From: Candidatus Cloacimonadales bacterium
GTDB lineage: Bacteria; Cloacimonadota; Cloacimonadia; Cloacimonadales; JAFGVF01
Assembly: GCA_963667035.1 (NCBI GenBank)
Contig: OY762964.1
Coordinates: forward strand, 1,024,001-1,088,000
Reading direction: 5' to 3'
DNA length: 64,000 nt
Shown here: positions 45,638-57,471 of the stretch, piece after piece
How the letters are laid out: the number at the start of each line of letters is the position of its first letter
How positions within the stretch are numbered: position 1 is the stretch's first letter
The notes under the pieces: model-generated
What the model was told of the DNA's origin: nothing
Database searches by the model: none
What the model saw: only the letters and a program-made list of their open reading frames with translations
Program-made: the position numbers and the translations under genes

Positions 45638-47008
45638 ATGTTAGGTCGCACAAAACGTATTCATTTTGTAGGTATTGGTGGTATAGGTATGAGTGGGATA
45701 GCCGAATTCCTTTTTAATCAAGGACTGGAGATTACAGGATCGGATATGAAGAAGAGTGAATTGACCGAACATTTAGAGTTTATAGGTATCAAGGTTGCCG
45801 AAGGGCATGATTCCGATTTACTTTTTGATGCGGATGTCGTTGTTAAATCTTCAGCGGTGACAGACGATAACCCTGAAATCCAGAAGGCCATTCAATCACA
45901 TATACCTGTAATAAGAAGAGCAGAAATGCTTGCCGAGATTACCAGAATGAGTATTGGTATAGGCTTGGCCGGAACACACGGGAAGACTTCAACAACTTCA
46001 ATGGTAGGAATGATTTTGAATGAAGCAAAGCTTGACCCTACTATCATTGTGGGCGGAAGAGTTAAAAACTTTGGCTCTAATAATATTATTGGTACAGGTA
46101 AGTACATAGTCGTTGAAGCTGATGAGTATGACCATTCTTTCTTAACCCTTTCACCAATTTTTGCAGGAATTACAAATATTGATGCTGACCACTTGGATTG
46201 TTATAGAAATCTTGATGATATAAAGAATGCATTTGTTGAGTATGCAAACAAAGTACCTTTCTTTGGATGTGTAGTTGCTTGTCTTGACGATAAGGGAGTA
46301 CAATCAATTATACCTAGAATTAATAAAAGAGTTCTTACTTACGGTTTTTCCAGACAGGCAGATTTACAAGCCGTAAATGCTGAGTTTAAAGATTTCAAAG
46401 CTTCTTTTGATGTTGTTTTCAAGGGGTATAAGCTTGGTAAAATAGTAATGCAAGTAACAGGTAAACATAATGTCCTTAATGCTCTTAATGCAATAGGGAT
46501 AGCGTTAGAACTTGATGTGCCGTTTGAGGATATACAGAGTGGACTGAGCAATTATAAGGGAGTATTCAGAAGATTCGAATATAAAGGAACGGGAAAAGAT
46601 GTCATAGTTTATGATGATTATGCTCATCATCCAACCGAGATTATTGCAACATTAGAGGCTTTTAGAGAAAGTACGGATAAGAGAATTATTTTGCTTTTTC
46701 AACCTCATCTTTTTTCTCGAACCAGAGACTTCCATGAGGAATTCGGTCGCTCTTTCTTTTCATGTGATATACTCTTTATTGCTCCAATCTATCCGGCAAG
46801 AGAGAAACCGATTTCAGAAATAAGCGGCAAGCTTATCGCTGATTCTGCTATAAAATCGGGTCACCAACATGTCCACTACATAGATGACAGTTCTGTTATA
46901 GAAGAAACTGTTATGAAACATCTAGAGCCAGGAGACATCTTGCTAACTATGGGAGCAGGACCGATATGGAAGATAGGAGAAAAAATCTTAGGAGAACTCA
47001 CTAAGTGA
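45638..47008 (+). CDS. murC: UDP-N-acetylmuramate--L-alanine ligase
   Basis: HFVGIGGIGMSG, AGTHGKTSTT, EADEYD, DDYAHHPTE, FQPHLFSRT. Confidence 0.97.
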   Translation: MLGRTKRIHFVGIGGIGMSGIAEFLFNQGLEITGSDMKKSELTEHLEFIGIKVAEGHDSDLLFDADVVVKSSAVTDDNPEIQKAIQSHIPVIRRAEMLAEITRMSIGIGLAGTHGKTSTTSMVGMILNEAKLDPTIIVGGRVKNFGSNNIIGTGKYIVVEADEYDHSFLTLSPIFAGITNIDADHLDCYRNLDDIKNAFVEYANKVPFFGCVVACLDDKGVQSIIPRINKRVLTYGFSRQADLQAVNAEFKDFKASFDVVFKGYKLGKIVMQVTGKHNVLNALNAIGIALELDVPFEDIQSGLSNYKGVFRRFEYKGTGKDVIVYDDYAHHPTEIIATLEAFRESTDKRIILLFQPHLFSRTRDFHEEFGRSFFSCDILFIAPIYPAREKPISEISGKLIADSAIKSGHQHVHYIDDSSVIEETVMKHLEPGDILLTMGAGPIWKIGEKILGELTK

Positions 47009-47748
47009 TTGAAAAAAAGATTAGAGGGAATAGCCGATATGTAACCTACATGGTTACAGGTTTAATTCTTCTCATGATAATCTTTTTTGTGGGACGTTCA
47101 TATCTTAGAAACTGGAATAAGTGTGAACTTAAAGCAGTAATCATTGAAAATAATGATGTTATTCCGGAGGATAAGATTCAGAGTCTTGTGAGTCCATATC
47201 TGGGGCAGAACATATTTATGATTGACTTAAATGAGATAAAAACGAGTATTCTGGAAGTATATAGAATAGAAGATGTTTCTATAAGAAGAAGACTCTTTGA
47301 TAAGCTTGTTGTGAAAGTTTTCGAAAGACAAGGCTTCATAAATGTCATTACAAGAGACAAAAAAATCTTTACACTGGATAAAGACGCTGTTGTATTGAAC
47401 GAATTTAATTATAACAAAACTGATGATTTCCCAATAATTGATTCGGGACTTTATTCTAGAGATTTCAATGCGGGGGCATCAGTGCAAGATGAATCCGTTT
47501 TAAAAATACTTAATTACCATAAAAAAATACTTGAAGCCAAACCCGAAATTAAAAACTATATCTCTGAGTATTTCCTGGAAGACAATGATATATGTTTTCG
47601 TGAAATAAAGTCGGGAAAGAAAGTGATTATAGATTTGAGGTATCTTGATGATAATATTTCAATGTTTTTTTCAATGCTTGAGAGTTTACGTTACGATGAA
47701 TACGGAACATATATCTTCAAATACAAAGATAAAACCATTAGGAAGTAA
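47005..47748 (+). CDS. ftsQ: Cell division protein FtsQ/DivIB-like
   Basis: TM plus POTRA-like segment (GQNIFMIDL...IEDVSIRRRLFDKLVVKVFER); dcw position. Confidence 0.8.
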   Translation: MIEKKIRGNSRYVTYMVTGLILLMIIFFVGRSYLRNWNKCELKAVIIENNDVIPEDKIQSLVSPYLGQNIFMIDLNEIKTSILEVYRIEDVSIRRRLFDKLVVKVFERQGFINVITRDKKIFTLDKDAVVLNEFNYNKTDDFPIIDSGLYSRDFNAGASVQDESVLKILNYHKKILEAKPEIKNYISEYFLEDNDICFREIKSGKKVIIDLRYLDDNISMFFSMLESLRYDEYGTYIFKYKDKTIRK

Positions 47749-47774: not shown

Positions 47775-49022
47775 ATGCTAGAATTTGACCAGAAACCTGT
47801 TTTGAAACATGCTAAACTAGTGATATTCGGAGTCGGTGGTGCCGGCTGTAATGCGATAAATAATATGATTGATTATGGTCTCGAAGATGTTGAGTATATT
47901 GCGACAAATACTGACATTGCACATCTAAATATTTCGAAGGCAAAGATTAGAATTCAACTTGGAAAGAAGCTTACTCAGGGAAGAGGTGCAGGTTCTGATC
48001 CTCAAAGAGGTAAGGAAGCTGCAGAAGAAAACTATGAAGATATAAAACACTTAATGGAAGGTGCCGACTTGGTTCTTATCGCTGCAGGAATGGGTGGGGG
48101 AACAGGTACAGGTGCTGCACCTATTATTGCTAAAATAGCTAAAGAGAAAGATATTATCTCCATAGCCGTAGTAACAACGCCTTTTGATGATGAAGGTAAG
48201 ATAAGAAGAGAAAATGCTAAGAATGGTCTTTTGGAACTTAGAAGGTATGTCGACTCATATTTAATAGTTCCCAATCAAAAGATATATGAAGCATATCCTG
48301 ATGTCCCTGCCTTTGACGCTTATAAAGAAGCGGATTTAGTTCTTTTTAATTCTGCTAAAGCTATTGCAGATGTTATTAACAAATCCTATGTAATGAATGC
48401 AGAGCTTTCTGATTTAATAACTATTCTCAAAGAGAATGGTAGAGCTCTGATAGGAATTGGAACTGGAGAGGGTGAGAATAGAGCTGCAGATGCTCTTAGA
48501 AACGCTATCGAAAATCCATTGCTAAACGATGTTACTTTAGAAGATTGTGCTGGCGTTGTTTACCAAATTCTTGCCGGTCAGGATATCCCTACCAGCGACC
48601 TGAGATACATCTCTGAAGAGATTCACAAGTTGGCAGGGGATGATGCACATATCATTCGTGGTGCTCACTTCGATGAAGCAAGTAACGGAAAAATATCACT
48701 TACTGTCATAGCTTCAGGATTAATAGATCCGGACGAATTCTTAAGAGAAAGTGATAAACAGCAAGCAGCTCAAAATGCATTTAGCAACCAAGAATATAAT
48801 CCTAATCAAGGACTTAACCAGAACCTGAATCCTGATTTTATTAACAACCAAGCAAATATGGATTCATATAATACGGGTACTGAACTTGATACAGATGCAC
48901 AAGCAAGGATTGATCAGTTTATGAAAGGAATTAGTTTGTCGGACGAAGACCAAGAAGATGATAACAAGAAAGATTCTCCTCTTAAATCGGAACCGGTTGA
49001 CTTTTCCAGAAGATATCGTTAA
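47775..49022 (+). CDS. ftsZ: Cell division GTPase FtsZ (divergent)
   Basis: GVGGAGCNA, NTD, GRGAG, AGMGGGTGTGAAP, PF.DEG..R. Confidence 0.95.
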   Translation: MLEFDQKPVLKHAKLVIFGVGGAGCNAINNMIDYGLEDVEYIATNTDIAHLNISKAKIRIQLGKKLTQGRGAGSDPQRGKEAAEENYEDIKHLMEGADLVLIAAGMGGGTGTGAAPIIAKIAKEKDIISIAVVTTPFDDEGKIRRENAKNGLLELRRYVDSYLIVPNQKIYEAYPDVPAFDAYKEADLVLFNSAKAIADVINKSYVMNAELSDLITILKENGRALIGIGTGEGENRAADALRNAIENPLLNDVTLEDCAGVVYQILAGQDIPTSDLRYISEEIHKLAGDDAHIIRGAHFDEASNGKISLTVIASGLIDPDEFLRESDKQQAAQNAFSNQEYNPNQGLNQNLNPDFINNQANMDSYNTGTELDTDAQARIDQFMKGISLSDEDQEDDNKKDSPLKSEPVDFSRRYR

Positions 49023-49050
49023 TCAAAGTAATAATAACACATAAATAGGA

Positions 49051-49074
49051 AAGCCTGTCAGAAATGACAGGCTT
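49051..49074. terminator. Terminator hairpin between ftsZ and the convergent tRNA-Leu
   Basis: AAGCCTGTCA-gaaa-TGACAGGCTT. Confidence 0.8.
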
Positions 49075-49080
49075 AAATTT

Positions 49081-49169
49081 TGGTGCTGAAGAAGGGACTT
49101 GAACCCCCACGTCCTATTCCGGACACTAGAACCTGAATCTAGCGTGTCTACCAATTCCACCACTCCAGC
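49081..49169 (-). tRNA. tRNA-Leu (anticodon CAG)
   Basis: GCTGGAGTGGTGGAATTGGTAGACACGCTAGATTCAGGTTCTAGTGTCCGGAATAGGACGTGGGGGTTCAAGTCCCTTCTTCAGCACCA; long variable arm, encoded CCA. Confidence 0.96.
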
Positions 49170-49366
49170 AATATTGAATTACAGATATTTTGCCTCACTT
49201 CCGATGTCAATATAATTCTTTAGTCCTTTTAGGCGTTCGTTTCAATTTCTCAGTATAGTCAGAAAAGATTTCTACTACCATCTCCCAGCAAATCAGTTCG
49301 ACGATTCTATAGAATAATCAGTAGTCCTAGACTAAATTCTATCCTTTTGTATTCGTTAATGGAAGT

Positions 49367-49436
49367 TGCCGACTTCGTCGTCACAGCAACTCAGAGGAGT
49401 TGCTGTACAATCGTAGTGCAAGTGCCTCACTTGTAC
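49367..49436. repeat. REP-like cluster: copy 2 of the 43-bp repeat plus a GTAG-footed palindrome
   Basis: 49367-49409 matches 19165-19207; GTAG-TGCAAGTG-cct-CACTTGTA starts at 49413. Confidence 0.75.
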
Positions 49437-49787
49437 ATAGCTCAAAGAGCTATATTACTGCGTATCATCTTCTGTCTAGCTATCTTAAATGTAACAAACT
49501 ATCAATCGACTTCGTTTTGACCCGCTATTTTCAACTTTCTATGCCCATTCTGCAATACTGTTAAAAACATAAGAATTACTATGGCATAAGGTGTCTATAC
49601 AGTGAGTATAATGTGTTGAATGCCGATAAATAGGGAGAGGAGAGTTAAGAATATCATTCATAGTAACTCTTCGGTTTTTTCACAGGTCACTAAAGTAAAT
49701 AATATGTTGAACTGAAATAGATTAATTCTTGACTTATAAAATCTTTTCATTCTTTTCGAATACAATTATGCAGTAAAAGGGAGTCAG

Positions 49788-51125
49788 ATGTTAATCACAC
49801 ATACAAAAACACAGCTTCTTGCAGATTTCTCATTTCTCCTCCAAACAATGGAAGAGGTACATCCTGATCTCTATTCAGATGTAGATAAATCTCAATGGGA
49901 CAATGAAGTTGAAAGAATCAAAGCAGAGTTAGAAGACGGAATGACATCTCTTGATTTTATCAAAGTTGTAGGCAAATTGGTTGCTTCGATTGGAGATGGG
50001 CATACCTATATCCTGCCATGGATAGATGAGATCACAAAGAATGAGGAGTTTAAGTACTTTCCCTTATCGATGAATTTTGCTAAAGAGAGAACTCTTAATA
50101 ACTACGATATGGGAATAATTAGAGCCGGAGATGAGATTCTGGAAGTAAATGAAATCCCTATGACTCAACTGGTGCAGGAGATGGTGCAATATATCTCAGC
50201 AGAGACTGCCGATTTTAAATACGCAATGTTAGCCCGTCGTTTTACAATCTTACTTACTGCTCTCTATGGAATTGAAGATGTGTATACCCTTAAAGTACGA
50301 AGAAAGAAGGAGATTATTGAGACATCTGTTACCGGGATGACAGGGGCAGAACTTAATGAGTGGGCAAAAACATTACCACAAAAGAAAAATGATGGTAATA
50401 ACTTCAAAATTGAAGATGATATTGGCATTCTAACAATTCCATCGTTTGGAATGTATAAAGAGGACGCTGATACATATAGAGAGTTCATTGATGATGTTTT
50501 CCTACAACTAAAGGACCAAAAGTCTAAACGACTTATCATCGATGTTCGTAATAATGGTGGGGGAGATTCACGGTTGGCAAAATATATTACCAATTATCTG
50601 ACAGAAGAACCTACATATAACTTCGATAGACTCATTTGGAAGAGTAGTAAGCAGATACGAGAATTTGTGCGTGATGATGTTGAGAATGGTACCCATGGTT
50701 ACTATTCACAGTCGGGATTAGATAAATTATTGAGCGTTAATGAGGGAGAGTGTATTGAACAAGATTGTAAATCTTCAGTGAACCCAAATGAACATAAAGA
50801 GAATACATTCCAAGGCGATGTAATTGCTCTTTCTAATCCGCTATGTTTCTCAACCACAACAGACCTTCTAGCCATGATTAGGGATTTTAAGCTAGGTAGG
50901 ATCGTTGGTACGTGTTCCGGTGGGCTTCCTAACAGCTTTGGAGATTGTTATTATTTCAATCTACCAAACACTAATATCTTCTGCTCAGTATCTCATAAAT
51001 TCTTTGTTCGACCCTCAGGTAACGAAAAAGATAATGACTTAACACCTGACTATATTATTGAGCAGTCAGCTGAGGACAAACAAAAGAATTTTGATACAGT
51101 TTTGGAATTTGCCAAGTTATGCTAA
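49788..51125 (+). CDS. S41 family peptidase
   Basis: HPDLY, GDGHT, PDZ-like GDEILEVN, LIIDVRNNGGG, CFST, IVGTCSGG, TPDY. Confidence 0.88.
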   Translation: MLITHTKTQLLADFSFLLQTMEEVHPDLYSDVDKSQWDNEVERIKAELEDGMTSLDFIKVVGKLVASIGDGHTYILPWIDEITKNEEFKYFPLSMNFAKERTLNNYDMGIIRAGDEILEVNEIPMTQLVQEMVQYISAETADFKYAMLARRFTILLTALYGIEDVYTLKVRRKKEIIETSVTGMTGAELNEWAKTLPQKKNDGNNFKIEDDIGILTIPSFGMYKEDADTYREFIDDVFLQLKDQKSKRLIIDVRNNGGGDSRLAKYITNYLTEEPTYNFDRLIWKSSKQIREFVRDDVENGTHGYYSQSGLDKLLSVNEGECIEQDCKSSVNPNEHKENTFQGDVIALSNPLCFSTTTDLLAMIRDFKLGRIVGTCSGGLPNSFGDCYYFNLPNTNIFCSVSHKFFVRPSGNEKDNDLTPDYIIEQSAEDKQKNFDTVLEFAKLC

Positions 51126-51141
51126 TGATTCGGAGGGTAAT

Positions 51142-51301
51142 ATGAAAAGATGTGAATGGTGTGAGGAAAATCGTTGTACATAGACTACCACGATAAAGAG
51201 TGGGGAAACCTCTCCACAATGATAGACTACTCTTTGAATTTTTGATTCTTGAGGGAGCACAGGCAGGATTAAGTTGGTTTACTATTTTGAAGAAGCGGGA
51301 G
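51142..51301 (+). pseudogene. tag: DNA-3-methyladenine glycosylase I (tag) remnant, frameshifted and 3'-truncated
   Basis: GGAGG-ATG MKRCEWC, then in shifted frames YHDKEWG and HNDRLLFEFLILEGAQAGLSWFTILKKRE, after which similarity stops. Confidence 0.85.
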
Positions 51302-51790
51302 TTCATAGCGAAACAGGGACTTCCGTATAAGGCTCAATTGCTCGGGTTAACGATTTGAAAGGTCTCTTAGGGTGAATTGCTTTAGCTCGAAATGTAGTTC
51401 GATCGTCCCCGGTCGAATTTGCATTGTAACGTAATTGTCCTCAATTGCGATTCTCTAAATTGTTATTTTTTTGAAATTAGTTACAATTCTCAATTTCTAT
51501 CCGCTATCATTGCTCTATCACAATAACAATACAAAGTACTTCAAACGGTTGTCTGAAACAAGTCCGAAACTTGGGACCCAAAACAAGAATTGCACAGGGT
51601 TTGCTCAAGAGACTCACCAGTTTTTAGCTCGAATTGTGATAGTACAATGATAGAACATTGAAATCGGAATGATAATTTTTATTGTTATGAAATTAACCTA
51701 TTAGGTTTCAAAAAATCGCAACGATTAGCTATACTGGTTTCGAATCGGAGCTAAGATTAAACTACTTAATCAAAAAGAGTTTATTTGATC

Positions 51791-51829
51791 CAAACAGCAG
51801 GCACATAGAAGCTATGTGCCTTGAGTTTG
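51791..51829 (-). terminator. Hairpin downstream of the ATPase-Sel1 gene
   Basis: CAAAC..AGGCACATAG-aag-CTATGTGCCT..GTTTG. Confidence 0.6.
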
Positions 51830-51870
51830 AACCAATAGTGTCTGTAACAAATTTATAGATGGGTAAAGAC

Positions 51871-54684
51871 TTACTTATAATCTTCTGCTAATTGTTGTAT
51901 TGCTACAATAATCTCTTCCACTGTCTGTTTAAGTTCACTGCCCATCTTGATATACTCATTGGGATACTCATCCTGCATAAAATACATCAGAGCATAATAT
52001 AAAGGTTTAAACCTGTCTTTAAGATGAAACGGATTCTCATTGAAGAGTTTCAGGGCTGAGTGATACTGCTTTTTAGCAATAAGCAACATGATAAACTGTC
52101 TGATATCTTCAGGAAATTCTTTATAAGTTTCTTCATTATTCAGGAATTCCTTTGATACATCAAGGGCTCTCTTTATCTCATTATTCCATAGTAGAACCAT
52201 TGAATATGTATGAGAAATGAAGATGTTTTTATTTTCATTGAATTGTTTCACTGCATATTGAAGTGCCTTAACTTTATCGAGTTTTTCTGTGAAATACATC
52301 CAGGATAAATTGTTCATTGCATCAGTGTCACCTTTCTCACTAGCCATAAGATAGTACTTTTCGGCATTTTCGAAGTCTTTGTATTCATTGTGATAGATAA
52401 GAGCTAAAATGTTCATTGCGTCAGTGTCACCTTTCTCAATCGCCATAAGATAGTACTTTTCCGCCTTTTCGAAGTCTTTGTATTCATTGTGATAGAAAAG
52501 AGCTAAATTGAACATTGCATCAGTGTCACCTTTCTCACTAGCCATAAGATAGTACTTTTCGGCCTTTTCGAAGTCCTTGTATTCTTTGTGATAGATAAGA
52601 GCTAAATTGAACATTGCACTAGGATGGTCTTTCTCAATCGCCATAAGATAGTACTTTTTCGCTTTTTCGAAGTCTTTGTATTCATTATGATAGAGAAAAG
52701 CTAAATTGTACATTGCACCAGCATGGTCTTTCTCAATTGCCATAAGGTAGTACTTTTCCGCCTTTTCGAAGTCTTTGTATTCATTATGATAGAGAAAAGC
52801 TAAATTGTACATTGCACCAGTATGGTCTTTCTCAATTGCCATAAGGTAGTACTTTTCCGCTTTCGCGAAATCTTTGTATTCATTTTGATAGAGAAGAGCT
52901 AAATTGTACATTGCATCAGTGTCACCTTTCTCACTAGCCATAAGATAGTACTTTTCCGCTTTCGCGAAATCTTTGTATTCAGTAAGATAGAGCGAAGCTA
53001 AATTGTACATTGCGTCAATGTTACCCTTCTCAATCGCCATAAGGTAGTACTTTTCCGCCTCTTCGAAGTCTTTGTATTCATTTTCATATAAATATGCTAA
53101 CAAAAACTTTGCAGTAGGATTATCTTTCAGGTGGTTATTTGAGAGATAATCTATAGCTTTCTCAGGATTATGTTTATGAGAACCATACAAATATCCTAAC
53201 TGTAAGAATACAATGCTGTCTTTAACTCTGAGCATTTCGAGTTGATGGATAGCTGAATCAATATCTTTATTGTCATTAATGCTTTGATCAACTAAGCTCA
53301 TTAACTCGTTATCCGATGGTTGCATTACTTTTGCATATTCAGAACCACAAATATCCAGATAGATTTTGGTCTCTTTACACAATTCATCCTGAAGTTGTCT
53401 GTTGATTGAAGTACGAGCTAATGCTTCGGTCATAAAATAGGCATGTTTGTCATGGACTATTCCTTTTCTTACAGCTTCAATATGTTTTTTTGCTCTGTTC
53501 TCAAGCTCATTACTGTCGCACCATCCAATCAGAAATTCCACTAGGAATCTGACTTTGTTTTCTTCTGTTTTGCCTCCGTGCCTCATGAGATACCAGATAT
53601 TGAAGAAACGTTCCGATAACCTGTAAAGGTAGTTTTTTGTATTGGTTTTTTGCTTTTCGATAAGATGATCTCTTTCAAGAAGTTTCAGTTGAGATGAGAT
53701 TGCCTTACTTTGTTCTTTAATTTTAACCGAAATCTCTTTTGCACTGATAGCATCCCAGTTTAGAGCGATTATTTCAACAATCTCCTGTTGCTGGGGAGAA
53801 AGGCTGTCCATCCTGTGTTTATAAAGAGGAGTCACTTCATCAAGAATTCTTTCTAAATCAAGAAAAGCCTTTCCGTTTTCATCATCAATGAAGATTTGAA
53901 AAAGGATAACAATGGTCCTGATTACTCCGCCCGTCATTCTTCTGAGGGCTTCCAGCCTTCCCGGTTGTTCCTCAACAATCTTTCTGACTCGTTCCCGATT
54001 ATATCGATCACCAAGATTAAGCATCAAAGTCTTGGTCTCTTCTTGAGAAAGCCCTTTTAAAACAGGCATTTTGAAGAATTCATAAAAAGGACTTTTATAG
54101 CCGAAATCACTTTCAAGGCTCACGGATGAGGCTCCAATAATTCTGATTTCCGCACATTGAATCAGGACTTCCCGAAGTCTTTGCTTTTCTTTATTATTCA
54201 GTTTGTTTAGAATATCACCAATGTTATCAATAAACACAATGATTTTATTCCTATTTTCTGCCAGTTTCAACTCAAGCAGATTAAAACATCTTTCTTCATA
54301 GTCATCGTCATACTCGAATGACTCCATCTCTTTTCTCAGGTTTTCAAATCCTTGCTTTTCTTGTAAATATTCAGCTATCCTTTCCCAGAGTTTAAACAGT
54401 TTCCGTATCTGATACTCTTCCTCACGGAAGACAATGGGAATAAGCCATGTGTTAAGATCAATGTCTGCTTCGACTTCATAGGCCAGTCGGAGCAGCAAAG
54501 TCGTTTTACCCTGCCCCCGGATTCCCTGAATTATATAGGGCTGTGCCGGATTCCTCATGTCAGAACTCTTTATATCCCTGAATATATCTTCGAAGATTTG
54601 TGTTCTGACGACGAAATTAACAATTAAATCCTTTCTGCTTTGATTAGCCGGGTTATATATTTTGGGATGATTAGTTTGCAACAT
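51871..54684 (-). CDS. STAND-like P-loop NTPase with winged helix and Sel1/TPR-like repeat array (about 937 aa)
   Basis: Walker A GIRGQGKTT, Walker B IIVFIDNI, TGGVIR, wHTH-like LSPQQQEI...ISSQLKLL, eight 33-aa repeats. Likely start MLQTNHPKIYNP at 54684, overlapping the upstream gene's stop. Confidence 0.85.
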   Translation of the reverse strand: MLQTNHPKIYNPANQSRKDLIVNFVVRTQIFEDIFRDIKSSDMRNPAQPYIIQGIRGQGKTTLLLRLAYEVEADIDLNTWLIPIVFREEEYQIRKLFKLWERIAEYLQEKQGFENLRKEMESFEYDDDYEERCFNLLELKLAENRNKIIVFIDNIGDILNKLNNKEKQRLREVLIQCAEIRIIGASSVSLESDFGYKSPFYEFFKMPVLKGLSQEETKTLMLNLGDRYNRERVRKIVEEQPGRLEALRRMTGGVIRTIVILFQIFIDDENGKAFLDLERILDEVTPLYKHRMDSLSPQQQEIVEIIALNWDAISAKEISVKIKEQSKAISSQLKLLERDHLIEKQKTNTKNYLYRLSERFFNIWYLMRHGGKTEENKVRFLVEFLIGWCDSNELENRAKKHIEAVRKGIVHDKHAYFMTEALARTSINRQLQDELCKETKIYLDICGSEYAKVMQPSDNELMSLVDQSINDNKDIDSAIHQLEMLRVKDSIVFLQLGYLYGSHKHNPEKAIDYLSNNHLKDNPTAKFLLAYLYENEYKDFEEAEKYYLMAIEKGNIDAMYNLASLYLTEYKDFAKAEKYYLMASEKGDTDAMYNLALLYQNEYKDFAKAEKYYLMAIEKDHTGAMYNLAFLYHNEYKDFEKAEKYYLMAIEKDHAGAMYNLAFLYHNEYKDFEKAKKYYLMAIEKDHPSAMFNLALIYHKEYKDFEKAEKYYLMASEKGDTDAMFNLALFYHNEYKDFEKAEKYYLMAIEKGDTDAMNILALIYHNEYKDFENAEKYYLMASEKGDTDAMNNLSWMYFTEKLDKVKALQYAVKQFNENKNIFISHTYSMVLLWNNEIKRALDVSKEFLNNEETYKEFPEDIRQFIMLLIAKKQYHSALKLFNENPFHLKDRFKPLYYALMYFMQDEYPNEYIKMGSELKQTVEEIIVAIQQLAEDYK
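52321..53112 (-). repeat. Tandem array of eight 99-bp near-identical coding repeats (Sel1/TPR-like)
   Basis: Unit consensus AMxNLAxxYxNEYKDFEKAEKYYLMAxEKxxxx; DNA such as tagtacttt and tttcgaagtctttgtattca recurs every 99 bp. Confidence 0.93.
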
Positions 54685-55825
54685 ACTTAAACCACCACAT
54701 TTGTAGAATAGGGGAGTTAAAATGGTATTGGTCGGGACTTTCATTGTTATTGATATACCCATCGTAGATAAGTACTCTGACAATATCTTTATAAGTCTGT
54801 TCCATGTTAAGCTTGACAGAGAGGTTATACATCTCGTTCTTATCAATAACATCATTTTCAGAAATGAAATTCAACAGCTCTTTAGATAGTATATATTCAT
54901 CTGATTTGAACATTGTCCTCAACCTGCTTTCCCAGTGAGCAAAGTAATGCTTTTGCTCAATCATCTCTTCGAAAGCTTGTTCAATAACATCCTCAGTGAC
55001 TGTCTCAATCTCGTTATCTTTTGTGTAATACTCAATAGATTGAATAATCATCTGAATATAGAAGGGTATCAGCCATTTTGTTTTCTCTAGAATATAATCA
55101 ATCATCTCTTCCGATAAATTATAACGAACATCATTTAAAAGAGCAAAAACGAGTTCTTTTGCCTGTTTCCGGGTTAAAGGTTTTACACTTATAGAAGTAA
55201 GATCATTTATTGTACCGAAAGCGTTTAGCCCATCAACGATGTTCTCCAGACCGATAGATCCTGAGTATATGAATTGGATTTTCTCATATAAGGTATGCCT
55301 CAACACTCTGTTTGTCTGCAGGAAATGAATCGCAGCCTGATTACCCTGAGCACTTTTTATATTCTCGACAGTCTGCGAAAACTCGTCTAAAAGAAATACC
55401 AGTTTCTCTCCCTCAAGTTCAATCTTTTCAATAATTCTGATGAATTCTGCATAATAATCTATGTTTTGCTTTGAGTCAAATTCTACTCCGTTTTTTGATA
55501 TTGCTTTTATAGCAGGAAAAACCTCTTTGATCCGTGAGAGTATTTTATCTCTGTTTGTTACAAATTCCGATGTGATAAGCTTTGTCAGAAGTTTTCGATA
55601 AAATTCCTGCTCAGAACTCACCGACTCTGTCATGTGGAATATAAAGTTGTATCCTTCAAGCGGATTGTCCTTCAAATAGAACATTAATGATGTTTTCCCT
55701 ACTCTGCGGGGAGCGACAAGGAGTATATTGCTTCCTCTATCGATACTCCGTTCAATCCTTGCAATGAGATCTTTGCGTGGGAAGAAATCATCACCATGGA
55801 CTGCATTTCCGATTTGTATTTTCAT
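54671..55825 (-). CDS. P-loop ATPase (STAND/AAA-like, about 384 aa)
   Basis: GNAVHGDDFFPR, Walker A APRRVGKTS, Walker B LVFLLDEF, SGSIGL, IPFYIQ, FNSPILQMWW; ATG at 55825 follows AGGAGG. Confidence 0.88.
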   Translation of the reverse strand: MKIQIGNAVHGDDFFPRKDLIARIERSIDRGSNILLVAPRRVGKTSLMFYLKDNPLEGYNFIFHMTESVSSEQEFYRKLLTKLITSEFVTNRDKILSRIKEVFPAIKAISKNGVEFDSKQNIDYYAEFIRIIEKIELEGEKLVFLLDEFSQTVENIKSAQGNQAAIHFLQTNRVLRHTLYEKIQFIYSGSIGLENIVDGLNAFGTINDLTSISVKPLTRKQAKELVFALLNDVRYNLSEEMIDYILEKTKWLIPFYIQMIIQSIEYYTKDNEIETVTEDVIEQAFEEMIEQKHYFAHWESRLRTMFKSDEYILSKELLNFISENDVIDKNEMYNLSVKLNMEQTYKDIVRVLIYDGYINNNESPDQYHFNSPILQMWWFKYVAN

Positions 55826-56220
55826 CTCTGCCTCCTTTGACAAAAAATCTATAGTCAAAAGAGATGGCAATAAAAGTTTTGTCAAGTTGTTTGACAAAAT
55901 ATATTTTGTTATCTATGGGATGACTAATTCTTTACATGAACAATTATGGCTGAGAATAGGGGGAGAGGGTAACTTAATGATGACGATTAAATATAAATTA
56001 TCTCATTAGCAATATGCTCTCTTACAAGTTCACGGAGATTTTGAGATAAGCCAAGATCAATGTCACTATCATTATCTCTTCAAGATTTCTTATTTAACTT
56101 AATTTAAGTTAGGTGTAAATGTATGACATTAGAAATCTTGCTTAAATGGAGTAATCACGCTTAAGCAAAATAGTAAGTTTCCTAATCATTAGTACAACTG
56201 ATTGTTCCAGAAGTTTGGGT

Positions 56221-57471
56221 CTATAACTTTCTAAAATCAGTCCCGGTTGGGTTTTGAAATACTTCTAAGTCAAATTCAGGGACAGCAGCTAATAAATGAT
56301 CAAACATATCTGACATAATGCTTTCGTATACTGCCCATTCCTTGCGACTGCTGAATGTATATATTTCAATAGGCAATCCGGTTTCGGATGGGGGCAGTTG
56401 CCTAACCATGCAGGTCATGTGGAGATTAATATTAGGATTACTTTTTACATAAGCTTCTGCGTACACTCTGAAGATACCAATATTGGTTAGATGTCTTCCA
56501 TTAATAAGAAGGGATTTATCAATCTCATTATCCTTATTATATTTCTCAATCTCCTGACTTCTCTCATTGATATAATTACTAATAATCTGAACTTTCTTGA
56601 GTCTCTCAAGCATATCTTCTGAACAGAATTTGATACTGCTAATCTTTATATTTAGTGACCGTTTAATTCTTCTTCCACCGGATTCAGACATTCCACGCCA
56701 GTTTTTGAAAGATTCAGAGATAAAGGCATAGGTAGGGATAGTAGTAATAGTTTTATCCCAATTCTGGATTTTAATTGTCGTAAGGTTCATCTCTATGACA
56801 TCTCCATCAGCTCCATAGTTTGACATTGAGACCCAATCTCCAATTCTCACCATATCATTCGCAGAAAGTTGGATGCTTGCAACAAAGCCAAGTATTGTAT
56901 CTTTGAAGACTAATAGTAAAACGACAGTCATTGCTCCTAGGGCACTTAGGAAATAAATTGGTGTTTTGTTCATTAGGAAGGATAATATCAGAATTCCACC
57001 AAACAAATAAGTTACTAACTTGGCTAGCTGGAAGTAGCTGTCTAAAGGATTGTTTTCTAATATTTTAACACTCTTTGTATAGAGCTTTAGCGTGTTTAAC
57101 AATCTGATAAGCACAATCATCGTGATAATACTAATATAGGCATTTACAAAACGATAAAGATACGGGATAATTCCTGTAAAGTCCATAAAAATATAAGGGA
57201 TAGTAAAATAAATCACAACAGCCGGAGCCAATTGGGAGAGAGGACTAAATACACTATGCTCAACCAAGGTATTGTCCCATTGGGTTTTAGTTTTCTTTAC
57301 AAGGGTATTTATAGATTTAAGTAGGATATTCTTAACAATCAGATTTATAATTAACCCTATTATAAACAGTAGGATTAGCAGTATTCCAAGTCTAAGATAC
57401 ATAGTCATCGTTTTTTCAATTCCAAGCCCGGTTAGCAAATTAGTAACCCAATCTATAGATTCATTGTTCAT
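56221..57471 (-). CDS. MscS-family mechanosensitive channel (YbdG-like)
   Basis: LVFKDTILGFVASIQL, IGDWV, VIEMNLTTIKIQNWDKTITTIP, FKNWRGMSESGGRRIKRS. Confidence 0.93.
   Translation of the reverse strand: MNNESIDWVTNLLTGLGIEKTMTMYLRLGILLILLFIIGLIINLIVKNILLKSINTLVKKTKTQWDNTLVEHSVFSPLSQLAPAVVIYFTIPYIFMDFTGIIPYLYRFVNAYISIITMIVLIRLLNTLKLYTKSVKILENNPLDSYFQLAKLVTYLFGGILILSFLMNKTPIYFLSALGAMTVVLLLVFKDTILGFVASIQLSANDMVRIGDWVSMSNYGADGDVIEMNLTTIKIQNWDKTITTIPTYAFISESFKNWRGMSESGGRRIKRSLNIKISSIKFCSEDMLERLKKVQIISNYINERSQEIEKYNKDNEIDKSLLINGRHLTNIGIFRVYAEAYVKSNPNINLHMTCMVRQLPPSETGLPIEIYTFSSRKEWAVYESIMSDMFDHLLAAVPEFDLEVFQNPTGTDFRKL

Follow-up and report, generated by a model that had tools for sequence, protein, structure and literature searches.

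A widespread, strictly coupled two-NTPase cassette of NLR-like architecture as a candidate sensing or defence system

Introduction

Bacterial proteins of the signal transduction ATPases with numerous domains (STAND) type, which resemble the nucleotide-binding leucine-rich repeat (NLR) receptors, recognise many phage proteins. Those that have been characterised carry their own killing domain, and most of them were found through their association with defence islands. In plants, NLRs also occur as sensor/helper pairs. The characterised systems nearest to the locus reported here are the Avs (AVAST) proteins, in particular Avs5, described as a SIR2 domain followed by an nSTAND3 NTPase and TPR/Sel1 repeats (PMC12931631). 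A two-gene counter-invader system with an nSTAND2 NTPase in each gene has been predicted (Kaur et al. 2021, PMC8195603). In HINPO, another predicted immune system, ParA is fused to an ORC/Cdc6-like part proposed to sense the DNA of selfish elements (bioRxiv 10.64898/2026.10.19.760177). Fungal NLRs carry internally conserved, hypervariable WD/ANK/TPR repeats with about 85% identity between units (Dyrka et al. 2014, PMC4986451), and a survey of prokaryotic STAND clades classed 198 of 589 as defence-associated (Lee et al., 10.64898/2026.01.04.697583). These accounts, and the comparisons drawn from them below, refer to the available portions of the sources cited. Here we report on a pair of overlapping genes, called A and B, in a 64,000-nucleotide stretch of the genome of a Candidatus Cloacimonadales bacterium (contig OY762964.1, positions 1,024,001 to 1,088,000). 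This whole stretch is called the window, and positions are counted from its first letter.

RefSeq annotates the two genes as 'ATP-binding protein' and 'hypothetical protein', and a few narrow literature searches returned no description of the pair. An earlier note, written by a model from the sequence alone, had described a coupled two-ATPase module of NLR-like architecture and proposed an uncharacterised sensing or defence system. We conclude that the pair is a genuine, widespread and uncharacterised two-NTPase cassette of STAND/NLR-like kind. A and B together are an obligate two-NTPase module of the STAND and ORC-Cdc6 branch of the AAA+ ATPases, and probably a sensing or defence device. The explanation that we tentatively prefer, while giving it somewhat less than an even chance, is an NLR-like conflict sensor made of two NTPases, in which the partner ATPase gives the output.

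Results

A and B form a strictly co-conserved cassette

Both genes lie on the minus strand, as do all features of the pair given below. Gene A (54671..55825; ATG at 55825, stop at 54671) encodes 384 residues, an AAA+ ATPase of ORC/Cdc6-like (Arch_ATPase) type whose C-terminal part is a winged helix. Gene B (51871..54684; ATG at 54684, stop at 51871) encodes 937 residues, a STAND NTPase of nSTAND5/NACHT-like type. Direct reading of the sequence gives a ribosome-binding site, AAGGAGG, at 55831..55837, 5 nt upstream of the ATG of A, and, as the earlier note had it, a 14-nt overlap from the stop of A to the start of B (54671..54684). The frame of gene B is open upstream to 54855; we set its start at 54684 because the Met at this position is the invariant first residue in 30/30 aligned homologues.

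Judged by their relatives, A and B are real genes and not chance open reading frames (ORFs), since these relatives are numerous: 1067 for A at E<=0.001 among 4191 candidates scored, and 1543 for B at the same threshold among 8000. A whole-library search with A gave 1896 clusters (50% identity) at E<=0.001, 990 at E<=1e-10 and 191 at E<=1e-30. In a scan of species-representative genomes, relatives of A were found at no fewer than 555 loci (at least 555), of which the best 80 were kept for analysis. A relative of the N-module of B begins right at the end of A in all of the loci with room for it (76/76); at the remaining 4 of the 80, the contig stops at or inside A. The two genes overlap by 14 nt in 65 of the 76 loci, by 11 nt in 7, by 8 nt in 1 and by 10 nt in 1, and are separated by a short gap in 2. 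Such an overlap implies translational coupling of the two genes. Moreover, the identities of A and of the B N-module to the window proteins co-vary over the 76 loci (r = 0.86, the points not being independent).

No third gene belongs to the cassette: when the 1068 ORFs of the 80 loci were clustered, ORFs under 70 aa being left out, none was common to more than 11 loci, and the largest clusters after A and B reflect synteny among closely related Clostridium genomes. A and B are a real, self-contained cassette with strict co-conservation, which the earlier note had made a test of its proposal.

An A-B fusion was not seen among the longer forms of A (two, then five more), B being searched within 515-1640 aa only. 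Complex prediction for a short pair (L050, 391 + 534 aa) gave a score of 0.08 against a mark of 0.32, which is evidence neither for nor against contact. Some relatives of A are fused to other domains. Four clusters at 31-34% identity (P0241, P0321, P0363 and P0368) are joined to AAA_15/AAA_21 ABC-type ATPases, the ATPase type of several known defence systems, and P0368 has an EAD8 conflict adaptor inserted besides; P0292, at 34% identity, carries an N-terminal ParA/CbiA-like domain. These fused relatives are paralogues, and they serve as leads, not as tests.

Protein A resembles initiator-type switch ATPases

The family of A is well conserved (mean column identity 62%, with an invariant extreme C-terminus). 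In an alignment of 24 sequences, residues A38-K44 and S46 of the Walker A motif (APRRVGKTS, residues 38-46, 55688..55714) are invariant (24/24) and T45 is nearly so (90% or more). The Walker B motif (LLDEF, residues 145-149, 55379..55393) contains an acidic D-E pair, D147 and E148, which is likewise invariant (24/24). Both motifs had been pointed out before and both are present.

In the AlphaFold model of A (mean pLDDT 90.2, pTM 0.86), a P-loop domain precedes a helical lid and a winged helix. Foldseek ranked 2fna_A (E 7.4e-12) and 2qen (E 1.1e-11) highest and, after them, among others Orc1/Cdc6, CED-4, the nucleotide-binding domains of plant NLRs, MalT (8bob_C) and TnsC (9g0f_A, 8fcu_Q); the Orc1/Cdc6 chains 2qby_A, 1fnn_A, 1w5s_B and 2v1u_A match at E 1e-6 to 7e-9. 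The modelled AAA+ base, lid and C-terminal winged helix, taken with the Walker A motif and the D-E Walker B motif, are those of the ORC/Cdc6-type initiator clade. On its predicted fold, A is thus an ORC/Cdc6-like switch ATPase and not an unfoldase.

Profile searches are less specific. Against Pfam, A matched AAA_16, AAA_22 and AAA_14, all under their cutoffs; PF01637 (ATPase_2/Arch_ATPase, cutoff 33.2 bits) was not among its matches at E<=0.1, and A is not a member by that measure. A precomputed PF01637 match exists for 19 of 120 listed homologues of A. PADLOC and a PDB sequence search gave no match to A, NCBIfam gave sub-threshold matches only for the pair, and relatives in the ESM Atlas bear generic names alone, such as 'Archaeal ATPase / AAA-like'. 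A and B are remotely related to each other in their P-loop domains (hhalign probability 81%, E 1.2e-5, 156 columns).

Protein B has an NLR-like architecture and no recognisable effector

In the AlphaFold model of B (mean pLDDT 87.2), an NTPase region (residues 1-210, the domain itself beginning at about residue 23) is followed by helices (214-294), a winged helix (297-368), a helical linker and a solenoid that runs from about residue 490 to the C-terminus. As modelled, the P-loop NTPase, helical domain, winged helix and repeat region place B in the STAND NTPase superfamily. The top Foldseek matches are the Sel1-repeat proteins 6ok3, 4bwr, 8sxq and 6deh. The whole architecture is matched by the STAND-TPR protein 6mfv_A (E 7.2e-10), Avs3 (8dgc_A, E 2e-7) and SAMD9, and the earlier reading of B as a STAND NTPase plus repeats, built like an NLR, holds on these grounds. 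Searched against PDB sequences, the N-terminal half gave one chance-level match only.

The catalytic motifs of B were examined in 30 aligned sequences. In the Walker A motif (GIRGQGKTT, residues 54-62, 54499..54525), G54, R56, G57, G59, K60 and T61 are invariant (30/30). The extended Walker B motif (residues 148-157, 54214..54243) ends in D153-N154-I-G-D157, and the D153-N154 pair, already remarked on as reading DN, is invariant in these 30/30 and in a separate 25/25. In the extended Walker B motif of NACHT proteins, acidic residues stand a few positions past the Asp. We considered whether 'DN' marks a dead NTPase and rejected this: it is a trait of the whole family, and it is not the sign of an inactive site because past the Asp-Asn-hydrophobic triplet an acidic residue occurs at +3 or +4 in 29/30 homologues, in the manner of the extended Walker B motif of NACHT proteins.

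Assignment to a named NTPase family is approximate. PF25199 (nSTAND_NTPase5) matches the window B with 25.6 bits (E 1.2e-5, profile positions 17-66 of 145), below its cutoff of 34 bits. All of 30 homologues match it at E<=0.001 (best E 5.4e-9), the five bit scores seen, 27.9-31.8, also being under the cutoff. PF05729 (NACHT) gives the window B 16 bits (E 0.011) against a cutoff of 26.7, so that B does not qualify as a member, and is matched at E<=0.001 by 24/30 homologues. By these profile scores B can be called NACHT-like, yet it is no member.

The winged helix of B (residues ~297-368, 53581..53796), seen in the model and in weak helix-turn-helix matches, is modelled as three helices followed by two strands and ends in an invariant aromatic-rich motif (residues 358-368). 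The PADLOC matches of B are confined to it and are weak. The earlier note had suggested DNA binding by this domain as one possible output. It is, however, the standard third sub-domain of a STAND module and for that reason provides no evidence of a DNA-binding output.

The protein ends in a conserved cap (residues 821-937, 51874..52224), which has invariant columns in the alignment, is all-helical in the model and is found downstream of the N-module in 66 of 76 B-carrying loci at 32-65% identity. Pfam and the ESM Atlas gave it no family or fold beyond weak TPR-like leads below 0.9. The idea that the cap is a hidden enzyme was rejected, as no family, motif or fold supports it. Pfam, PADLOC, NCBIfam and fold searches revealed no nuclease, TIR, SIR2, protease or other effector in either A or B; for nuclease, TIR and SIR2 this agrees with what the earlier note had said.

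An AAA+ protein coupled to a protein with a TPR/Sel1 array might act on cellular proteins, A and the adaptor-like B taking part in the assembly, disassembly or quality control of client complexes. TPR/Sel1 arrays are common as client-binding adaptors, and SEL1L-HRD1 and adaptor proteins of LbcA type are among the structures that Foldseek matched to B; both ATPases look cytoplasmic, without enzymatic domains, and their gene context is often housekeeping. A itself speaks otherwise, since it falls in the initiator/STAND branch, whose members are switches and not unfoldases, and has no pore-loop type classical AAA family above cutoff in Pfam. No client gene is co-conserved with the pair, and its patchy, horizontally spread distribution (see below) is unsuited to core proteostasis. 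We consider a protein-handling machine improbable.

The repeat array changes by whole units

Between linker and cap, B contains about ten 33-residue Sel1/TPR-like units (residues 491-820, 52225..53214), detected with the Pfam Sel1 profile and Tandem Repeats Finder. Sel1 (PF08238) matches with 97 bits (E 4.9e-28, cutoff 30.7) in 7 stretches that form a helical solenoid in the model, so B is a genuine Sel1 protein by score, although its unit is shorter than the 36-residue Pfam model. The presence in B of both a winged helix and a Sel1/TPR-like array, claimed before, is thus confirmed. At the DNA level, Tandem Repeats Finder gives a 99-bp unit in 7.8 copies with 88% matches (52306-53082), and the seven core units of the protein are on average ~78% identical to one another.

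The lengths of 120 homologues of B fall into classes that step by 33 aa: 672, 705, 738, 771, 804, 869, 903, 934-937, 969, 1001 and 1035. A comparison of the window B with a close relative, P0122, gave 91% identity in the NTPase domain, 98% in the helical and winged-helix part, 92% in the linker and 90% in the C-terminal cap, against 75% plus two whole-unit indels in the repeat array. Compared in this way, the array varies by whole 33-residue units and is the fastest-changing part of B.

Residue changes within the unit are not scattered evenly. The positions that differ most between the window B and P0122 are 1, 4, 8, 11, 18, 19, 32 and 33; those that vary among the units inside the window B are 1, 4, 5, 8, 9, 11, 12, 18, 19, 21, 28 and 31-33, so that the two sets are largely the same. 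In the model, each hairpin begins with a helix that contains unit positions 1-12, and by their spacing several of the variable ones share one face of it, the face that in TPR proteins usually lines the groove for the ligand.

The cassette is accessory and spread across phyla

No relative of A was found in the genomes of the same genus (0/3, two of which are just 72-83% complete) or of the same family (0/11), and an orthologue-level match, at 52% identity, occurs in 1/40 relatives. Because A was found in none of the eleven same-family genomes, the pair is accessory in the lineage of the window. This bears out the earlier impression of accessory DNA; base composition, however, is not distinctive, the GC fraction of the pair being 0.34-0.38 and that of its surroundings 0.33-0.39. 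A metagenome protein 93% identical to the window protein exists.

Farther afield, the best 80 loci span about 11 phylum-level groups, judged by record titles. Carriers include Cloacimonadota, Marinimicrobia, KSB1, Desulfobacterota, Calditrichota, Actinomycetota, Bacteroidota, Melioribacteraceae, Campylobacterota, Clostridium, Alpha- and Gammaproteobacteria and Sericytochromatia, among them the cultured Pseudoalteromonas, Catenovulum and cold-adapted Clostridium. Identity between phyla remains high, 35-59% for A and 41-63% for the N-module of B, which points to horizontal spread.

Gene neighbourhoods and the case for a defence role

We examined gene neighbourhoods at 51 of the 76 loci, taking on either side of the pair as many as three ORFs of >=100 aa; loci with short flanks and near-duplicates were left out. 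A first sample (27 loci, 132 proteins) was searched with Pfam and with PADLOC at E<=1e-10, and a second (24 loci, 107 proteins) with PADLOC only, at E<=1e-15. The credible neighbours include a complete-looking retron I-B in Sulfurimonas (L042, 6501-8860; a reverse transcriptase and an ATPase-Toprim protein), two genes upstream of the pair with one ORF between, and a Dsr2-like SIR2 protein directly downstream of a gammaproteobacterial pair (L061, 14518-18171), which also has a HicB antitoxin. Elsewhere the pair stands beside a DpdE/ZorD-like SNF2 helicase (L038), PemK and HigB toxins (L025) or, in the second sample, a type I restriction subunit at one locus (L021) and, at another, the candidate PDC-S01 (L034). 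Generic PADLOC matches were discounted: a chromosomal SMC protein, ABC transporters, a cysteine desulfurase by NifU, a DEAD-box helicase, a small methyltransferase and an ankyrin-BlaR1 protein. A distant pair on the Moraxella osloensis plasmid pNP7-2 (L089, 8992-12274; A ~30% identical, B of 699 aa, 11-nt overlap) shares its island with a Qat system, a protein kinase, insertion sequence (IS) elements, a dUTPase and an N6 DNA methylase cluster. In a Calditrichaceae contig, the pair is preceded, at a distance of two to three genes upstream, by two T4 gp19-type tail-tube genes (L029, 6906-8151) of either a contractile injection system or a prophage remnant.

A number of observations must be set against a conflict sensor. 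A credible defence or toxin-antitoxin gene occurs within three genes of the pair at 6 of the 51 loci, a count with no matched control that shows neither an enrichment nor the lack of one; at the other 45 no such gene was found, and the neighbours are mostly transporters, metabolic enzymes, peptidases and regulators. In the window, no defence or mobile-element gene adjoins the pair. PADLOC-DB v2, run on both proteins, matched no system model apart from the weak winged-helix matches; the pair is therefore not an already modelled system, as the earlier note had supposed, and gains no support from those models either. Relatives of A occur on 8 of 72,556 plasmids, and none was found in 50,697 phage records or in a scan of IMG/VR. 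The high conservation across phyla also fits a conserved cellular partner. Within the array, the ratio of amino-acid-changing to silent variation (pN/pS) among the seven core units of the window B is 0.28, with no overall excess of amino-acid change, and the pattern described above does not prove positive selection. Nor is the array indispensable: B of Clostridium (~520-535 aa) keeps the N-module and the cap and has no array. Finally, an effector domain is absent from the 120 listed homologues of B with one exception, P0131.

Two of these cases deserve description in their own right. The Clostridium loci are from cold-adapted strains (L047, L048, L050, L053, L057, L058, L062 and L063), most of which have their neighbourhood in common, with a methionine gamma-lyase gene and lexA nearby. 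P0131, a metagenome protein of 729 aa, keeps the N-module of B and has a group-1 glycosyltransferase (residues 542-700) in place of the array; this may reflect either a true exchange of domains or a fusion made in gene calling.

Of the defence proposal in the earlier note, the NLR-like architecture and the accessory, coupled pair have stood, whereas the association with defence islands looks weak (6/51 loci, with no matched control). Several of the same observations suit a signal-transduction switch outside immunity, in which the array of B would sense a cellular or environmental protein or metabolite and B, with A, would regulate unlinked genes or some process in the manner of MalT-, AfsR- or GutR-type proteins, the winged helices perhaps contacting DNA. 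The mostly metabolic, transport and regulatory neighbours at the 45 loci without a credible defence gene, the lack of an effector domain in A and B, the high conservation across phyla and the presence of MalT (8bob_C) among the structural matches of A all agree with such a role. So does the survey of Lee et al. (10.64898/2026.01.04.697583), whose available portion describes the 198 defence-associated clades among 589 as interspersed with non-defence clades. Against it, Pfam gave neither protein a dedicated DNA-binding output domain (LuxR, OmpR or similar), a winged helix being part of every STAND module. The patchy horizontal spread over about 11 phylum-level groups, with 0/11 same-family genomes, comes without any conserved linked target gene, which would be unusual for a regulator, and rapid change in array copy number and residues among near-identical relatives is unexpected for a fixed cellular ligand. 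We regard a non-immune regulatory switch as a serious if rather unlikely explanation.

The locus and its flanks in the window

Downstream of the pair, a strong hairpin predicted by RNA folding (51785..51835, minus strand) lies 36-86 nt past the stop of B and probably ends the operon transcript. The minus-strand fold of 51770-51875 has -29.7 kcal/mol (z = -4.4), and none of 200 shuffles was as stable; a simple terminator scan did not call it. The promoter/terminator scan as a whole found 20 signals against 17.4 expected from shuffles and yielded no usable promoter.

The pair sits, as had been noted, between a broken tag gene and mscS. The tag fragment (51203..51307, plus strand) matches positions 17-51 of 177 of the 3-methyladenine DNA glycosylase I profile PF03352 with 42 bits. 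Because an intact tag gene is present elsewhere in the genome (G000:C1:995905-996432, ~28 kb before the start of the window), the fragment is a decayed second copy, and it marks a rearranged left border. It is separated from gene B by 563 bp without an ORF (51308-51870). Four short look-alikes of this segment occur elsewhere in the genome (27-64 bp, 72-96% identity) and may constitute a small dispersed repeat. Left of the fragment lie an S41 peptidase gene, a tRNA-Leu gene (49081-49169) and the dcw cell-division cluster; right of the pair come mscS (56221-57471), tamB and an Omp85 gene. Within the dcw cluster, ftsZ (47775-49022) comes straight after ftsQ (47005-47748) without an intervening ftsA, and the genome has FtsA-domain matches only at G000:C1:2623133-2623603 and 1330835-1331299, far from the cluster.

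The relatives are too diverged to place the borders of the accessory segment: queries with the S41 peptidase and TamB were unmatched in three relatives, and mscS was found in 2/4 at only 42% identity. A tRNA-linked island was considered and rejected, as the tRNA-Leu is directed away from the pair and an integrase is absent; this tRNA was the sole match in an Rfam search of 49000-56400.

These surroundings bear on a further explanation, namely that the pair is a maintenance cassette of a selfish or mobile element, such as an addiction module or a target-selection module like the AAA+ regulators of transposons, which survives as a remnant. The pair is self-contained, occurs at unrelated chromosomal sites, adjoins the broken tag fragment in the window and has a few plasmid copies, and TnsC chains are among the structural matches of A. 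Against this, no transposase, integrase or inverted-repeat boundary is conserved with it (the largest extra cluster reaches 11/80 loci), the window has no mobile-element genes next to the pair, plasmid copies are as rare as stated above and no relative was found in the phage collections. Moreover, both genes are intact and strongly conserved in 76 loci. We think a mobile-element cassette very improbable. This explanation and the protein-handling one are both less likely than an immune sensor or a regulatory switch.

Discussion

A conflict sensor with a division of labour between two NTPases could work as follows. A and B would be made from one translationally coupled transcript, in a proportion fixed through the overlapping start. 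B would be the sensor-switch, its Sel1/TPR-like array binding a protein ligand on the variable helix face, and ligand capture would free the NTPase-winged-helix module to bind nucleotide and to oligomerise, as in NLRs and bacterial Avs proteins. A, which has a D-E Walker B of the hydrolysis type and a winged helix of its own, would then be recruited or activated by B and supply the output. This output would most likely be an assembly that needs ATP and forms on nucleic acid or a host factor, and not an enzymatic attack, and the most likely role of the whole would be to sense invading genetic elements, as a conflict or defence system. In its most specific form the proposal is an immune or surveillance device without an effector, its output being no enzyme but the ORC/Cdc6-like partner; ligand capture by the rapidly diversifying array of B would license ATP-dependent co-assembly with A on DNA or a host factor, so that replication or transcription of the invader or the host is stalled. 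Such a device would be widespread, in hundreds of species and about 11 phylum-level groups, outside classical defence islands and would for this reason have been missed by guilt-by-association screens. We put this detailed version forward as a speculation and hold it unlikely.

The pair differs in three ways from the characterised bacterial STAND/NLR-like proteins: it lacks an effector domain, an obligate second ATPase of replication-initiator type goes with it, and it is usually found among ordinary genes. If the defence role is true, the pair would represent a new route from NLR-type sensing to output, and screens based on gene neighbourhoods would be missing a class of immune genes. If it is not, what we describe would be a widespread, horizontally moving regulatory switch. 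The family is large (the 191 clusters at 50% identity within E<=1e-30 of A) and has cultured carriers, which makes the question directly testable.

Comparison with known systems

Like B, the Avs proteins place a STAND NTPase and its winged helix in the centre and a sensor of TPR/Sel1-like repeats at the C-terminus, and Avs3 (8dgc_A) matches B structurally. They carry a SIR2, nuclease or protease effector, and B has no N-terminal effector family or fold; its NTPase is nearest to the nSTAND5/NACHT models and not to those of Avs, none of which was among its PADLOC matches at E<=0.1. B is accordingly not an Avs protein by these measures. In addition, the pair has an obligate second ATPase gene and no clear habit of residing in defence islands.

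For A, the closest structures are SSO1545 (2fna) and PABY2304 (2qen), archaeal AAA+ proteins that we take to be of the Pfam ATPase_2/Arch_ATPase type and for which we know of no function and no STAND-repeat partner. They share with A the P-loop domain, helical lid and winged helix (query-normalised TM-scores 0.60 and 0.66, respectively) at 16-18% sequence identity, A being under every Pfam cutoff. MalT and the Pyrococcus STAND-TPR protein (6mfv) show the same order as B, namely NTPase, winged helix and helical repeat sensor. MalT is equipped with a DNA-binding output domain of the LuxR type and accompanied by linked target genes, neither of which is found with B; B in turn differs from both in its partner ATPase and in an array of variable copy number.

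The nSTAND2 systems (PMC8195603) are, like the window pair, operons of two STAND-type NTPases predicted to act as a joint regulated switch. As far as their legend describes them, the NTPases belong to other clades, the window pair combining an nSTAND5-like with an Arch_ATPase/ORC-like protein, and they are linked to a glycosyltransferase and other effectors, none of which is conserved with the window pair. The earlier note pointed to a departure from the single-gene Avs design; as pairs of STAND-type NTPase genes had already been predicted, the two-ATPase arrangement is unusual yet not unprecedented. The ORC-CDC6/STAND-clade component of HINPO, as outlined in the available part of that preprint, is like A an ORC/Cdc6-like AAA+ protein paired with another NTPase, and the ParA fusion of P0292 recalls it. 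No HEPN, inactive nucleotidyltransferase or ParA component accompanies the window pair. By name or accession, the clade of the window pair had no match in the searched part of the supplement of Lee et al., the clade tables probably lying outside that part.

The array of B finds its nearest parallel in the repeats of fungal NLRs, as reported in the available text of Dyrka et al. (PMC4986451): high internal identity (~78% in B), gain and loss of whole units, and variation at few positions. The window pair differs in being bacterial, in its NTPase clade and in having no death or effector domain, and positive selection is not shown for it (pN/pS 0.28). By analogy, the division of labour that we propose between a sensor NTPase and a partner NTPase would recall the paired sensor and helper NLRs of plants.

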